From the sequence record MH355584.1: a stretch of 64,000 nt of DNA. The stretch is one strand, 5' to 3'. A model generated the notes under the pieces. That model searched no databases. It saw only the letters and a program-made list of their open reading frames with translations, and was not told the origin of the DNA. Position 1 is the stretch's first letter, and every line of letters starts with the position of its first letter. The stretch is from Escherichia phage vB_EcoM_JB75. The translations under genes and the position numbers were made by a program. This document shows, piece after piece, positions 2,628 to 52,135 of the stretch.

Positions 2628-2734
2628 TAGAATTCCCTAAAAATTTTTTCACAAAACTGTTTACATCTCTGTTCTTCCATGGTACTATACAACTATCAAC
2701 TACTGATACAGAAAACAACTTGGAGAATGAAATG
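2628..2734 (+). repeat. Promoter/5'UTR cassette copy A (near-identical to 45532-45631)
   Basis: About 100 nt shared, including early promoter, leader and RBS GGAGAATGAAATG. Confidence 0.85.
2659..2688 (+). promoter_or_regulatory. T4-type early promoter (sigma70-like)
   Basis: -35 GTTTAC, 18-bp spacer, -10 TACTAT, upstream A/T tract. Confidence 0.7.
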
Positions 2735-42748: not shown

Positions 42749-45445
42749 ATGAAAGAATTTTATATCTCTATCGAAACAGTCGGAAATAACATTGTTGAAC
42801 GTTATATTGATGAAAATGGAAAGGAACGTACTCGCGAAGTAGAATATCTTCCAACTATGTTTAGACATTGTAAGGAAGAGTCAAAGTACAAAGACATCTA
42901 TGGTAAAAATTGCGCTCCTCAAAAATTTCCATCAATGAAAGATGCTCGAGATTGGATGAAGCGAATGGAAGACATCGGTCTCGAAGCTCTTGGTATGAAC
43001 GATTTTAAACTCGCTTATATCAGTGATACGTATGGTTCAGAAATTGTTTATGACCGAAAATTTGTTCGTGTAGCTAACTGTGACATTGAGGTTACTGGTG
43101 ATAAATTTCCTGATCCAATGAAAGCTGAATATGAAATTGATGCTATCACTCATTATGATTCAATTGATGATCGTTTTTATGTTTTCGACCTTTTGAATTC
43201 AATGTACGGTTCAGTATCAAAATGGGATGCAAAGTTAGCTGCTAAGCTTGACTGTGAAGGTGGTGATGAAGTTCCTCAAGAAATTCTTGACCGAGTAATT
43301 TATATGCCATTCGATAATGAGCGTGATATGCTCATGGAATATATCAATCTCTGGGAACAGAAACGACCTGCTATTTTTACTGGTTGGAATATTGAGGGAT
43401 TTGACGTTCCGTATATCATGAATCGTGTTAAAATGGTTCTCGGTGAACGTAGTATGAAACGCTTCTCTCCAATCGGTCGAGTAAAATCTAAACTAATTCA
43501 AAATATGTACGGTAGCAAAGAAATTTATTCTATTGATGGCGTATCTATTCTTGATTATTTAGATTTGTACAAGAAATTCGCTTTTACTAATTTGCCGTCA
43601 TTCTCTTTGGAATCAGTTGCTCAACATGAAACCAAAAAAGGTAAATTACCGTATGATGGTCCTATTAATAAACTTCGTGAGACTAATCATCAACGATACA
43701 TTAGTTATAACATCATTGACGTAGAATCAGTTCAAGCAATTGATAAAATTCGCGGGTTTATCGATCTAGTTTTAAGTATGTCTTATTATGCTAAAATGCC
43801 TTTTTCTGGTGTAATGAGTCCTATTAAAACTTGGGATGCTATTATTTTTAACTCATTGAAAGGTGAACATAAGGTTATTCCTCAACAGGGTTCGCACGTT
43901 AAACAGAGTTTTCCGGGTGCATTCGTATTTGAACCTAAACCAATTGCTCGTCGATATATTATGAGTTTTGACTTGACGTCTCTGTATCCGAGCATTATTC
44001 GTCAGGTTAACATTAGTCCTGAGACTATTCGTGGTCAGTTTAAAGTTCATCCAATTCATGAATATATTGCAGGAACAGCTCCTAAACCGAGTGATGAATA
44101 TTCTTGTTCTCCGAATGGATGGATGTATGATAAGCATCAAGAAGGTATCATTCCAAAGGAAATCGCTAAAGTATTTTTCCAGCGTAAAGACTGGAAAAAG
44201 AAAATGTTCGCTGAAGAAATGAATGCCGAAGCTATTAAAAAGATTATTATGAAAGGCGCAGGGTCTTGTTCAACTAAACCAGAAGTTGAACGATATGTTA
44301 AGTTCAGTGATGATTTCTTAAATGAACTGTCGAATTATACTGAATCTGTTCTCAATAGTCTGATTGAGGAATGTGAAAAAGCTGCTACACTTGCTAATAC
44401 AAATCAGCTGAACCGTAAAATTCTTATTAACAGTCTTTATGGTGCTCTTGGTAATATTCATTTCCGTTACTATGATTTGCGAAATGCTACTGCTATCACA
44501 ATTTTCGGCCAAGTTGGTATTCAGTGGATTGCTCGTAAAATTAATGAGTATCTGAATAAAGTATGTGGAACTAATGGCGAAGATTTCATCGCAGCAGGTG
44601 ATACTGATTCGGTATATGTTTGTGTAGATAAAGTTATTGAAAAAGTTGGTCTTGACCGATTCAAAGAGCAGAACGATTTGGTTGAATTTATGAATCAGTT
44701 CGGTAAGAAAAAGATGGAACCTATGATTGATGTTGCATATCGTGAGTTATGTGATTATATGAATAACCGCGAGCATCTGATGCATATGGACCGTGAAGCT
44801 ATTTCTTGCCCTCCACTTGGTTCAAAGGGTATTGGTGGATTTTGGAAAGCGAAAAAGCGTTATGCTCTGAACGTTTATGATATGGAAGATAAACGATTTG
44901 CTGAACCGCATCTAAAAATCATGGGTATGGAAACTCAGCAGAGTTCAACGCCTAAAGCGGTCCAAGAAGCTCTCGAAGAAAGTATTCGTCGTATTCTTCA
45001 AGAAGGTGAAGAGTCTGTCCAAGAATACTACAAGAACTTCGAGAAAGAATATCGTCAACTTGACTATAAAGTTATTGCTGAAGTAAAAACTGCGAACGAT
45101 ATAGCGAAATATGATGATAAAGGTTGGCCAGGATTTAAATGCCCGTTCCATATTCGCGGTGTGCTAACTTATCGTCGAGCTGTTAGCGGTTTAGGTGTAG
45201 CTCCAATTTTGGATGGAAATAAAGTAATGGTTCTTCCATTGCGTGAAGGAAATCCATTTGGTGACAAATGCATTGCTTGGCCGTCGGGTACAGAACTTCC
45301 AAAAGAAATTCGTTCTGACGTACTGTCTTGGATTGACTACTCAACTTTGTTCCAAAAATCGTTTGTTAAACCGCTTGCGGGCATGTGTGAATCGGCTGGT
45401 ATGGACTATGAAGAAAAAGCTTCGTTAGACTTCCTGTTTGGCTGA
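42749..45445 (+). CDS. 43: DNA polymerase gp43 (family B)
   Basis: 898 aa; exonuclease and polymerase motifs (YGDTDS); matches T4 gp43 length. Confidence 0.98.
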   Translation: MKEFYISIETVGNNIVERYIDENGKERTREVEYLPTMFRHCKEESKYKDIYGKNCAPQKFPSMKDARDWMKRMEDIGLEALGMNDFKLAYISDTYGSEIVYDRKFVRVANCDIEVTGDKFPDPMKAEYEIDAITHYDSIDDRFYVFDLLNSMYGSVSKWDAKLAAKLDCEGGDEVPQEILDRVIYMPFDNERDMLMEYINLWEQKRPAIFTGWNIEGFDVPYIMNRVKMVLGERSMKRFSPIGRVKSKLIQNMYGSKEIYSIDGVSILDYLDLYKKFAFTNLPSFSLESVAQHETKKGKLPYDGPINKLRETNHQRYISYNIIDVESVQAIDKIRGFIDLVLSMSYYAKMPFSGVMSPIKTWDAIIFNSLKGEHKVIPQQGSHVKQSFPGAFVFEPKPIARRYIMSFDLTSLYPSIIRQVNISPETIRGQFKVHPIHEYIAGTAPKPSDEYSCSPNGWMYDKHQEGIIPKEIAKVFFQRKDWKKKMFAEEMNAEAIKKIIMKGAGSCSTKPEVERYVKFSDDFLNELSNYTESVLNSLIEECEKAATLANTNQLNRKILINSLYGALGNIHFRYYDLRNATAITIFGQVGIQWIARKINEYLNKVCGTNGEDFIAAGDTDSVYVCVDKVIEKVGLDRFKEQNDLVEFMNQFGKKKMEPMIDVAYRELCDYMNNREHLMHMDREAISCPPLGSKGIGGFWKAKKRYALNVYDMEDKRFAEPHLKIMGMETQQSSTPKAVQEALEESIRRILQEGEESVQEYYKNFEKEYRQLDYKVIAEVKTANDIAKYDDKGWPGFKCPFHIRGVLTYRRAVSGLGVAPILDGNKVMVLPLREGNPFGDKCIAWPSGTELPKEIRSDVLSWIDYSTLFQKSFVKPLAGMCESAGMDYEEKASLDFLFG

Positions 45446-45458
45446 TAGAATAAATCTA

Positions 45459-45479
45459 GGGACCTCCGGGTCCCTTTTT
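45459..45479 (+). terminator. Rho-independent terminator
   Basis: GGGACC-TCCG-GGTCCC plus T5. Confidence 0.75.
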
Positions 45480-45531
45480 CATACAAGTAATATAAATCTA
45501 TACTTATGAAAAACAGATGATTCTGGACATT

Positions 45532-45631
45532 TAGAATTCCCTAAAAAATTTTCACAAAACTGTTTACATCTCTGTTCTTCCATGGTACTATACAACTATC
45601 AACTACTGATACGGATTTGGAGAATGAAATG
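45532..45631 (+). repeat. Promoter/5'UTR cassette copy B (near-identical to 2628-2734)
   Basis: First ~80 nt differ from copy A by about 2 changes; shared RBS/ATG context. Confidence 0.85.
45562..45591 (+). promoter_or_regulatory. T4-type early promoter
   Basis: -35 GTTTAC, 18-bp spacer, -10 TACTAT. Confidence 0.7.
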
Positions 45632-45865
45632 AAAATTGTTATGGGATGCTTAGCAGTTTGTTTAGTTGCATTAGCAGCAGTTCCATTTGTTAGTGTTGAA
45701 AATGATACTCAACCTGTGATTGAATCTAGCACCGTTATTCACACTAATGGTAAAATATCAGTTAAAATTGATGATAATCTTCATGTGAATACAAATGGAT
45801 CTTTAGGTGTGCAAATGGGTAATACCTGCATAAGCACTACTGGAGTAATTACTACTTGCATTTGA
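45629..45865 (+). CDS. Small secreted/membrane protein (78 aa)
   Basis: N-terminal hydrophobic signal-like segment; start at ATG after cassette RBS. Confidence 0.5.
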   Translation: MKIVMGCLAVCLVALAAVPFVSVENDTQPVIESSTVIHTNGKISVKIDDNLHVNTNGSLGVQMGNTCISTTGVITTCI

Positions 45866-45875
45866 GGAAATTATT

Positions 45876-46256
45876 ATGAAAATCGCTATTTTGGTTATTG
45901 CATTAGGTCTTACTGGTTGTGTAGCTCAAGGACCGGTAGTAAATCAGTCTGATGTAGGAAAAATTGTAAACTGTTCAAGCAAATTTTATAATCCTAATGT
46001 CAAGTGTTATAAAGAAGCTCCAAAGCAAACAGTCGAACAAATGCAGGCGAATTTTGACGAAGCTATTCGTCCAGATGAATCTGCTCAAGCATATCGTAAT
46101 TCTGATGTAATTACACACGAAGAAAAAATTGAAAACTACTGCGCCGAAATTTGGGCTAATTGGGCTAATAATTACCAATGGCGTACTGGTAAAAATGCTC
46201 CGATGGAGTATGTAGTGAATTCTTATAATTCATGTGTAAAAAATTTGACTAAGTGA
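45876..46256 (+). CDS. Putative lipoprotein (126 aa)
   Basis: Signal peptide with lipobox LTGC; RBS GAGGAAA. Confidence 0.6.
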   Translation: MKIAILVIALGLTGCVAQGPVVNQSDVGKIVNCSSKFYNPNVKCYKEAPKQTVEQMQANFDEAIRPDESAQAYRNSDVITHEEKIENYCAEIWANWANNYQWRTGKNAPMEYVVNSYNSCVKNLTK

Positions 46257-46263
46257 GGAAAAC

Positions 46264-46515
46264 ATGGAAACTTTAGTAGCAGGTTCAATTTTTATGGTTT
46301 TAGTTTCAGGTGTGTTGGCTATTATTATATACATGCTTCCATGGTTTATTGCTTTGATGCGTGGGTCAAAATCGACAGTAGGAATCTTTTTCACATCTTT
46401 ACTGTTTAACTGGTCAATTATTGGTTGGTTTATTACATTTATTTGGTCAATTGCGGGTGAAACTAAAAAGTCTGCACAACCAAATCAGGTAATTATCATC
46501 AGAGAGAAGGAATGA
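46264..46515 (+). CDS. imm: Immunity (superinfection exclusion) membrane protein Imm
   Basis: 83 aa, two TM helices; position between 43 and 42 as T4 imm. Confidence 0.8.
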   Translation: METLVAGSIFMVLVSGVLAIIIYMLPWFIALMRGSKSTVGIFFTSLLFNWSIIGWFITFIWSIAGETKKSAQPNQVIIIREKE

Positions 46516-46661
46516 AAAGCAAAATTATAGCAGTGTTGCTTTTAATCTTGATGATTATAATAAGTATATACTATAGTGTAACGGTTCCTCTTATGATTCC
46601 AACTATTATTTTAGGTTGGAGTTTATTACTGTTACAAGTTAAATATGAATGTATCAATTGA
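46512..46661 (+). CDS. Small hydrophobic protein (49 aa)
   Basis: ATG overlaps imm stop; not in ORF track (<60 aa). Confidence 0.4.
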   Translation: MKSKIIAVLLLILMIIISIYYSVTVPLMIPTIILGWSLLLLQVKYECIN

Positions 46662-46668
46662 GGTTTAA

Positions 46669-47409
46669 ATGATTAGTGACTCTATGACAGTTGAAGAAAT
46701 CCGTCTTCATTTGGGGCTTGCATTAAAAGAAAAAGATTTCGTAGTTGATAAAACTGGTGTTAAAACTATTGAAATTATTGGCGCATCATTTGTAGCAGAT
46801 GAACCGTTTATTTTTGGCGCTCTTAATGATGAATACATTCAGCGTGAACTTGAATGGTATAAATCTAAGAGTTTGTTTGTTAAAGATATTCCAGGTGAAA
46901 CACCAAAGATTTGGCAGCAGGTAGCATCTTCTAAAGGCGAAATTAACTCGAATTATGGTTGGGCTATTTGGTCAGAAGATAACTATGCCCAGTATGATAT
47001 GTGTTTAGCTGAACTTGGTCAAAATCCTGATTCTCGACGTGGTATCATGATTTATACTCGTCCATCTATGCAGTTTGACTACAATAAAGATGGTATGTCA
47101 GATTTCATGTGTACTAATACAGTACAGTACTTGATTCGTGATAAGAAAGTCAATGCGGTAGTAAGCATGCGCTCAAATGACGTGGTCTTCGGATTCCGTA
47201 ATGATTATGCATGGCAAAAATACGTATTAGATAAATTAGTATCTGATTTGAATGCAGGCGATTCAACTCGTCAGTATAAAGCAGGTTCTATTATATGGAA
47301 TGTTGGAAGTCTTCATGTATATTCTCGTCATTTTTATTTGGTTGATCATTGGTGGAATACTGGCGAAACTCATATTGTGAAAAAAGACTATAAAGGTGAG
47401 TGGAAATGA
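46669..47409 (+). CDS. 42: dCMP hydroxymethylase gp42
   Basis: 246 aa, near-identical to recalled T4 gp42. Confidence 0.97.
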   Translation: MISDSMTVEEIRLHLGLALKEKDFVVDKTGVKTIEIIGASFVADEPFIFGALNDEYIQRELEWYKSKSLFVKDIPGETPKIWQQVASSKGEINSNYGWAIWSEDNYAQYDMCLAELGQNPDSRRGIMIYTRPSMQFDYNKDGMSDFMCTNTVQYLIRDKKVNAVVSMRSNDVVFGFRNDYAWQKYVLDKLVSDLNAGDSTRQYKAGSIIWNVGSLHVYSRHFYLVDHWWNTGETHIVKKDYKGEWK

Positions 47410-48248
47410 TTCAATTCGTAATTCCAAGTTATCAACGTGTCGGGGCAGTTTCTGCCCTTGATATGTTTCCGACTGATTATGAACCGCATATTATAGTGCG
47501 TGAACACGAAGAAAAAGCTTATTATGATGCCTATGGGTCTAGAGCTAAAATTATAACTATTCCTGATGATGTAAACGGAATTGCCGGTACTCGTAAAGCA
47601 ATTACTGATATGTATGCAGGTCAACGAATCTGGATGATTGACGATGATACTACTATTCGTATGAGTTCAATACGAAAGAGAGACGATAAACGGCGCGTAG
47701 ATAAAATTAATCAATTAACTCGTGAACAGTTCTATGAATTGATTCAATACGTTGAGGATGCCATGGATTGCGGGTATTATCATGGTCATGCTCGTCTACC
47801 AATTTTTAAAATTACTTCATCTTGGGGTAATTATCGTGAAAACTCATATGGATTCACGAATACATGGTATGACCTCGGAAAACTTACGACAGAACAAATT
47901 GGGTATGGAAAAATTGATTTGTGCGAAGATATGTATGCATTTCTCAATTTAATTAATCAAGGTTATCCGCATTTGGCCTTGTTCAAATATCTGGTTGTAT
48001 CTGGAAAAGCACAAGCTCCTGGCGGGTGCAGTTCAATTCGTAGTAATTCTAAACATAATAGAGCGCTTGAGCAAATCAATAGAGAGTTTCCAGAGCAAGC
48101 TCGTTGGAAAACTTCTAATATTGAAAAACGAAAATCGTTGGGTGAAGAAGATGAGCCATTAAAGGTTCTTCGCATGTGTGTTTCGCGTAAAGAAAAATCA
48201 GAAGCATTTCATAAGTTTAATGCTATTCATCCAATAGCAGTTGATTAA
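47406..48248 (+). CDS. GT-A fold glycosyltransferase in the beta-gt locus
   Basis: 280 aa; DXD-like WMIDDDT; differs in length and sequence from recalled T4 beta-gt (351 aa). Confidence 0.65.
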   Translation: MIQFVIPSYQRVGAVSALDMFPTDYEPHIIVREHEEKAYYDAYGSRAKIITIPDDVNGIAGTRKAITDMYAGQRIWMIDDDTTIRMSSIRKRDDKRRVDKINQLTREQFYELIQYVEDAMDCGYYHGHARLPIFKITSSWGNYRENSYGFTNTWYDLGKLTTEQIGYGKIDLCEDMYAFLNLINQGYPHLALFKYLVVSGKAQAPGGCSSIRSNSKHNRALEQINREFPEQARWKTSNIEKRKSLGEEDEPLKVLRMCVSRKEKSEAFHKFNAIHPIAVD

Positions 48249-51841: not shown

Positions 51842-52135
51842 ATGAAAAAATTTATCTTTGCTGCAATTTTTGCTTTATCTTCTTGCGCTGCTCAGCCTGC
51901 TATGGCGGGTTATGACAAAGATTTGTGCGAATGGTCTATGACTGCAGATCAGACTGAAGTTGAAATTCAAATTGAAGCGGATATTATGAATATCGTTGAA
52001 CGTGATCGTCCTGAAATGAAAGCTGAAGTGCAAAAACAACTTAAATCTGGTGGTGTAATGCAGTATAATTATGTTCTGTATTGCGATAAAAACTTTAATA
52101 ATAAAAATATCATCGCTGAAGTGGTAGGTGAGTAA
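51842..52135 (+). CDS. sp: Spackle-like periplasmic protein
   Basis: 97 aa with signal peptide MKKFIFAAIFALSSCAA; size and position match T4 sp (61.3). Confidence 0.6.
   Translation: MKKFIFAAIFALSSCAAQPAMAGYDKDLCEWSMTADQTEVEIQIEADIMNIVERDRPEMKAEVQKQLKSGGVMQYNYVLYCDKNFNNKNIIAEVVGE

Follow-up and report, generated by a model that had tools for sequence, protein, structure and literature searches.

Imm.1, a conserved predicted lipoprotein encoded next to imm, as a candidate partner of Imm in T-even phages

What do the small genes around the superinfection immunity gene imm contribute to T-even phages? The question arises in Escherichia phage vB_EcoM_JB75 (MH355584.1), of which a stretch of 64,000 nucleotides (nt), here called the window, was analysed. 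Directly after the terminator of the DNA polymerase gene (gene 43), a promoter cassette leads into an open reading frame (ORF) for a protein of 78 residues (ORF78) and a gene for a 126-residue protein with a lipobox, followed by imm and an ORF for 49 residues (ORF49). A preliminary description regarded the lipobox protein as a candidate exclusion factor or receptor-masking protein delivered by a mobile promoter cassette. Every feature it listed was recovered at the same position by ORF, repeat and promoter checks. Of its proposal, the tie to superinfection immunity gains support from the linkage of the gene to imm across genera and through rearrangements; receptor masking is very unlikely.

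The 126-residue protein is the orthologue of T4 Imm.1 (NP_049661), to which it is 98% identical, and scores 235 bits (gathering cut-off 27; E 9e-71) with the PF17578 (DUF5481) profile over residues 22-124. The order in T4 is gene 43, imm.1, imm, gene 42; the single ORF that the preliminary description placed between genes 43 and imm is indeed there, and is the lipoprotein gene itself. Both imm.1 genes adjoin imm on its upstream side, and the early promoter and leader are shared as well. The window protein differs in being one residue longer, in its lipobox (LTGC rather than LAGC) and in having ORF78 in front of it. Since T4 has the gene and, at the corresponding position, the same promoter, delivery of the lipoprotein by a mobile cassette is not borne out. 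The window imm is 98.8% identical to that of T4 record KJ477684.1. The five small features of the locus are as follows.

45629..45865, plus strand: ORF78, 78 residues, putative small exported or membrane-anchored accessory protein (phrog_4189; not in T4)
45876..46256, plus strand: imm.1 orthologue, 126 residues, predicted lipoprotein (PF17578, DUF5481; phrog_1754)
45909-45920, plus strand: lipobox LTGC of Imm.1 (rule match)
46264..46515, plus strand: imm, superinfection immunity membrane protein (PF14373, E 8e-16; phrog_1039)
46512..46661, plus strand: ORF49, 49 residues with two hydrophobic segments (phrog_3610), overlapping the imm stop (ATGA)

The genes are tightly packed, with 10 nt between ORF78 and imm.1, 7 nt between imm.1 and imm, and a 4-nt overlap of imm and ORF49. 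The 1.3-kb stretch has matches in 517 phage records, nearly all Tequatrovirus (497 at no less than 80% coverage; the best 99.5% identical), and appears to be the standard early operon after gene 43 in T-even phages, not one special to the window genome, which is itself a Tequatrovirus. Ratios of nonsynonymous to synonymous substitution rates (dN/dS) are 0.18-0.57 for ORF78, 0.02-0.15 for imm.1 and 0-0.03 for imm; all three genes tested are under purifying selection.

Imm.1 is tied to immunity by the position of its gene. In every clade found, comprising five divergent clades in three genome contexts, the DUF5481 gene lies immediately upstream of the Imm_superinfect gene. The first context, gene 43, DUF5481, imm, gene 42, is that of T4, the window and the more distant relatives L006 and L008. 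The second, at locus L005, reads frd.3, DUF5481, imm, ORF49. The third, in Mosigvirus, lies between genes 41 and 61 and reads dmd, one ORF, DUF5481, imm, spackle, so that the three envelope genes related to exclusion are clustered. Numbers of records with Imm.1 and with Imm are 501 and 501 at the Tequatrovirus level, and 155 and 156 at the Mosigvirus level.

A lipobox protein of 147-176 residues also flanks imm in five further genera. It lies upstream of imm in Gelderlandvirus S16 (LAGC), Jiaodavirus Nispero (LTGC) and Muldoonvirus PS2 (LTGC), and downstream in Gaprivervirus SP18 and Dhakavirus IME08 (LSGC). With DUF5481 these lipoproteins share a post-Cys motif x-x-G-x-VV-x-x-S-x-VGK, a Y-x-R motif and two C-terminal Cys residues, and three of them reached E 1.5e-6 to 2e-4 in an hmmsearch that included signal peptides. 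The indication of their homology to DUF5481 is weak. An IMG/VR sample held 80 loci encoding Imm relatives, 21 on contigs of at least 100 kb and 59 on shorter contigs. A same-strand lipobox ORF lay within 700 nt of imm on 19 of the 21 long, T4-like contigs, whose remaining flanks (~257 kb) held only 9 lipobox ORFs. Among the shorter contigs, 11 of 59 had a lipobox ORF near imm, several of these being T4-like fragments. The imm.1-imm pair has been kept through relocation and an order swap.

Is Imm.1 likely to be a lipoprotein, as the preliminary description read its LTGC motif? A self-coded rule in the style of PROSITE PS51257 was applied, which asks for a charged n-region, a hydrophobic h-region and [LVI][ASTVI][GAS]C with the Cys at 15-35. 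The N-terminus of Imm.1, MKIAILVIALG-LTGC, passes with Cys15, and among the plus-strand ORFs of the window the rule is passed only by Imm.1, Spackle and one membrane protein. The lipobox Cys is kept in four clades (LTGC or LAGC in Tequatrovirus, LTGC in Mosigvirus, LVGC in clade P0005, TTGC in clade P0007), at 32-42% identity (Mosigvirus 33-36%). None of the lipobox homologues has Asp at +2. In E. coli, lipoproteins without Asp at this position are sorted to the outer membrane, so outer-membrane localisation is predicted for Imm.1.

The homologues also share invariant YNP-x-x-K-x-Y and Y-R-x-S motifs as well as Cys89 and Cys120. AlphaFold modelled Imm.1 with a predicted local distance difference test score (pLDDT) of 56 from the single sequence and 66 with a 7-sequence alignment. 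The confident part is a helical hairpin at residues 81-125 (pLDDT about 90), preceded by a low-confidence region. Both Cys residues lie in the hairpin, and a Cys89-Cys120 disulfide probably forms within this helical domain. From these features we infer that Imm.1 is lipidated, sorted to the outer membrane and disulfide-bonded.

We tentatively propose, at a little under even confidence, an early envelope operon in which Imm.1 is a partner of Imm. A terminator hairpin and a sigma-70-type early promoter of PeSL type would restart transcription after gene 43, and one transcript would run through four small envelope-protein genes (ORF78, imm.1, imm and ORF49) into gene 42. A tether of ~35 residues, the low-confidence part of the model, would hold the small helical domain of Imm.1 in the periplasm, where it may act with inner-membrane Imm, and with ORF49 and Spackle where present, to make the envelope refractory to later T-even DNA delivery. 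The target would be something that all T-evens share (the tail tip or tube, for instance, or a site where the outer and inner membranes meet), and no particular receptor would be masked. ORF78 would be a further periplasm-facing accessory protein.

The functional link between Imm.1 and Imm is one that we infer from the conserved linkage of their genes. Because Imm.1 is strongly conserved, early, a predicted lipoprotein and stays beside imm through rearrangements, it is a cheap and specific candidate for an Imm partner in T4 itself. The broader notion, that Imm.1-type lipoproteins are the outer-membrane partner of Imm in a trans-envelope immunity module across Tevenvirinae, seems to us unlikely as matters stand. 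To our knowledge, how Imm stops DNA entry has been an open question since the 1970s-1990s, and such a module, if real, would explain how a membrane protein of 83 residues can stop DNA transfer. A 2019 review calls the action of Imm less easily understood than that of Spackle. The sequence features, the presence of the genes in T4 and hundreds of relatives, the type of cassette and the families, listed as of unknown function in Pfam and PHROGs, were already known. What is new is the hypothesis of an Imm-lipoprotein module conserved across Tevenvirinae, drawn from comparative evidence.

Several observations weigh against a partnership of Imm.1 and Imm. Lu and Henning are said to have found in 1989 that plasmid-borne imm alone excludes T4, in which case Imm.1 is not strictly required and would be accessory at most. 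With a profile of the mature proteins only, the lipoproteins of the five further genera were the top-ranked non-members, at only E 0.15-4.6, and hhalign aligned them with DUF5481 at 88% probability over the first 30 columns only. In a Guernseyvirinae phage, outside Straboviridae, imm stands alone among tail genes. The loci that show the linkage share ancestry and are not independent, and inherited synteny, rather than selection, may account for much of it. In two DUF5481 clades, P0004 and P0008, the lipobox Cys is missing and the signal peptide is of the ordinary kind, for which reason the lipid anchor is best described as usual but dispensable, and periplasmic export as the apparent constant of the family. 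A lipobox match can mislead: Spackle matches too (LSSC) yet is reported to be soluble, so the lipoprotein status of Imm.1 stays predicted. Finally, in the one functional datum found for imm.1, CRISPRi-ART scored its knock-down in T4 as 'Not Fit', with no fitness effect in the laboratory, in an assay that does not cover superinfection (PMC11879866). The supplement to that study lists T4 imm.1 as a 'hypothetical predicted membrane protein', and T4 imm itself, unlike imm.1, was 'Fit' (1.40, p 0.02; PMC11879866 supplementary file 15).

The main rival is an unrelated envelope function with inherited linkage, which we consider somewhat unlikely. Imm.1 and ORF78 would then be envelope proteins that stand beside imm through inherited order and a shared need for early expression and export. 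Possibilities for their role include stabilisation of the outer membrane or peptidoglycan, timing or inhibition of lysis, and countering of an envelope-based host defence. The neutral knock-down in T4, the Imm homologues without a lipoprotein outside Straboviridae and the common descent of most loci with the pair all fit this explanation, as does the want of fold or sequence relatives of Imm.1 beyond its own family. That family is very small: a search of 5.8 billion proteins gave 8 clusters and one of 1.84 billion gave 6 representatives, and neither found a distant annotated relative. A PDB profile search gave no match and NCBIfam none that was meaningful. With the model of pLDDT 66, Foldseek found nothing below E 1.7 in the PDB and only the protein's own family in BFVD. 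Nothing relevant to the function of DUF5481 or imm.1 was found in main texts of the literature, and imm.1 goes unmentioned in Abedon's lysis-inhibition review. An unrelated role accounts less well for a pair that stays adjacent through at least three rearrangements (the move to spackle in Mosigvirus, the L005 context, and the order swap in Dhakavirus and Gaprivervirus) and for the almost one-to-one co-occurrence of Imm and Imm.1 in two genera. We retain Imm.1 as a candidate partner of Imm.

Could Imm.1 instead mask a receptor, as the preliminary description suggested? Such a protein would bind the periplasmic face of the receptor and block adsorption of further phage, or of progeny to debris, in the manner of T5 Llp or Cor. 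Two sources describe T5 Llp as a small early lipoprotein that blocks the phage's own receptor (PMC9586334; bioRxiv 10.64898/2026.03.26.714494). Like Llp and Cor, Imm.1 is small, comes from a lytic phage, is expressed early, has a Cys pair and is predicted to be an outer-membrane lipoprotein. It differs from them in lacking sequence or fold similarity and in being encoded beside imm instead of a receptor-binding protein gene; no match beyond its own family was found in Pfam, among PDB sequences or by Foldseek. T2, T4 and other Tequatrovirus phages differ in their receptors and adhesins. Imm.1 is nevertheless 96.8% identical to the window protein in T2 and 98% in T4, at least 95% identical in 498 of the 501 Tequatrovirus records, and equally conserved in phages from Yersinia, Hafnia and Shigella hosts (96.8-98%). 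It thus shows no co-variation with receptor specificity. Near-identity in T2 and T4 and a gene beside imm, not beside an adhesin gene, make receptor masking very unlikely.

Among known systems, T4 Spackle (gp61.3), the periplasmic inhibitor of the gp5 tail lysozyme, offers another comparison. It is early, exported, small and helical with a disulfide, as is predicted for Imm.1, and in Mosigvirus its gene directly adjoins the pair of imm.1-like gene and imm. In Escherichia phage AlbertHofmann (Mosigvirus; L003 2495-3530) these three genes lie side by side, away from gene 43. Unlike the predicted lipoprotein Imm.1, Spackle is soluble after cleavage by signal peptidase I. There is no detectable sequence similarity between the two (E 7), and no Spackle structure was among the listed PDB fold matches of Imm.1. 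In the window, Spackle (phrog_1586) is encoded at 51842-52135 and carries its LSSC lipobox with Cys15; the Mosigvirus Spackle (AVSC) also matches the rule. The literature describes a soluble mature protein of 75 residues after signal cleavage. Either the match is a false positive of the pattern or the processing of Spackle merits a second look.

What distinguishes the window from T4 at this locus is ORF78. Where the preliminary description pointed to the interval between genes 43 and imm as one to compare across relatives, the comparison sets ORF78 apart and finds the lipoprotein and promoter shared. The T4 sequence can be aligned with that of the window from the terminator across promoter, leader, Shine-Dalgarno (SD) sequence and the first eight bases, ATGAAAAT, and then runs straight into imm.1. 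The borders of the indel are marked by a short repeat, ATGAAAAT(T/C)G(T/C)TAT, at both start codons. On this alignment ORF78 is the only indel relative to T4, with promoter and lipoprotein both resident there.

ORF78 belongs to phrog_4189, listed in PHROGs as of unknown function, and gave no match in Pfam or NCBIfam. By tblastn, 325 phage records contain it, roughly half of the 656 with Imm.1, and it evolves faster than its neighbours, with synonymous divergence (dS) up to 0.42. The protein, which had been called signal-bearing, does have an N-terminal hydrophobic stretch: MK, ~14 hydrophobic residues and A-L-A, which resembles a signal peptide or signal anchor. The remaining ~55 residues, with three TNG/TTG-centred repeats and a C-terminal Cys-x6-Cys pair, are consistent with a periplasmic location. 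Since L006 and L008 both lack ORF78, with only ~180 nt between gene 43 and DUF5481, it was probably gained within Tequatrovirus. In homologues P0013, P0019 and P0020 and at L018 826-1083, repeats of a 7-residue unit (CLVALAA) lengthen the hydrophobic N-terminus to varying extents. One such variant gains 'LAAC', and UniRef calls it 'Lipoprotein'. In some records just the C-terminal 49-60 residues are present.

The order of a gene for a hydrophobic-anchor protein followed by one for a lipobox protein resembles that of separated two-component spanins. ORF78, anchored in the inner membrane, and Imm.1, in the outer, could on that basis be imagined as a pair bridging both membranes. This we reject as next to inconceivable. 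Imm.1 occurs without ORF78 in T4, L006 and L008, and only the 325 of 656 Imm.1-bearing records noted above hold both. The genes follow an early promoter and do not lie in a lysis cassette, and the ~55-residue periplasmic part of ORF78 appears by inspection to be beta-rich rather than coiled-coil. T4, moreover, has its spanins in pseT.3 and pseT.2.

How did ORF78 come to stand here, and what drives the operon? The remaining features of the locus are these.

42749..45445, plus strand: gene 43, 898-residue ORF, annotated as DNA polymerase in T4 and relatives
45458..45480, plus strand: terminator-like hairpin, the stem-loop part of a PeSL-type element (7-bp stem, 4-nt loop, T-run)
45532..45630, plus strand: promoter cassette, copy B, ending in a start codon (repeat and promoter scan)
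46669..47409, plus strand: gene 42, 246-residue ORF, annotated as dCMP hydroxymethylase in T4 and relatives
2628..2733, plus strand: promoter cassette, copy A, a repeat of copy B upstream of an 87-residue ORF (phrog_2678)

The hairpin (45458-45475) begins 13 bases past the end of gene 43, has 5 G-C pairs in its stem and is followed by the T-run. A scan found 3 terminator-like sites in the region against 0.5 in shuffles. A terminator is annotated at this hairpin in phages e11/2 and DalCa, and the hairpin is conserved in T4. Copy B holds an A/T-rich upstream region, an early-promoter-like site with -35 TTTACA (45563-68), a 17-nt spacer and an extended -10 TG-TACTAT (45586-91), a leader, and the SD sequence GGAG (45619-22), 6 nt before the ATG at 45629. 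It is a real repeat of copy A, as had been described (97.6% identity over 82 nt, 90.6% over 106 nt, E 1e-35). Copy A directly follows two paralogous ORFs of 157 and 187 residues (phrog_2280). The pattern TTTAC[AT]-N16-18-TA[CT][AT]AT occurs 17 times on the plus strand of the window and 0 times on the minus strand, and the leader TGGTACTATACAACTATCAAC is common to several of the 17 copies.

PeSL elements of PST and T4 have the consensus TTTACW-N17-TAYWAT and are tied to indels between close relatives (PMC4122927). Copy B has their make-up, a stem-loop followed by a promoter on the consensus and then SD sequence and start codon. It is also repeated in the genome, and the ORF78 indel relative to T4 lies at its 3' edge. 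The alignment places the same promoter and leader at the same site in T4, upstream of imm.1. We therefore regard the cassette as a published type of element, a PeSL-type terminator plus early promoter that is resident in T4 too, and as one that would account for the variability of ORF78, not for the presence of the lipoprotein.

The likeness to described PeSL elements lies in the stem-loop before the promoter, the multiple copies per genome and the adjoining indel (Arbiol 2010, PMC2839356; Comeau 2014, PMC4122927). A difference is that only one cassette flanks ORF78 and microhomology of 8 nt forms the other border, so that a mini-circle model with two PeSL elements, in its simple form, is not directly applicable. 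Copy B shares TCT in the promoter spacer and TAGAATT in the upstream region with copy A where the T4 orthologue differs. The leader of copy B, in contrast, is that of T4, a mosaic that hints at patchy exchange among the copies. At the same locus, Shigella phage CT01 (L004 1209-2046) carries a recombination scar with a duplicated half-cassette, in the order full cassette, first 96 nt of imm.1, internal fragment of ORF78, 3' half of the cassette and complete imm.1; in the record's annotation the scar appears as two odd fusion ORFs. It provides indirect evidence on PeSL-mediated excision and integration.

The comparison also corrects annotation. T4 RefSeq NC_000866 names imm.1 'iduronate sulfatase' (locus tag T4p046), and many records label the Imm.1 orthologue 'immunity' or 'immunity protein'; we regard these labels as annotation noise. 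The T4 reference also lacks an entry for the conserved ORF49, which T4 encodes in intact form, one substitution apart (NC_000866 26227-26376; L001 4228-4377, minus strand), within an unannotated 153-nt 'gap' of that record. ORF49 homologues, which end in ..MIPT.I.GW...LQ.(K/R)(Y/F)EC(I/F)N, follow imm in Gaprivervirus, in some Dhakavirus phages and at locus L005, and are absent in Mosigvirus, Gelderlandvirus, Jiaodavirus and Muldoonvirus. Beyond gene 42, at 47400-48248, the window encodes a 282-residue protein of the TET-associated-glycosyltransferase family (phrog_842, beta-glucosyl-HMC-alpha-glucosyltransferase), at a place where T4 has beta-glucosyltransferase and segA. This suggests DNA glucosylation of T2/T6 type rather than T4 type.

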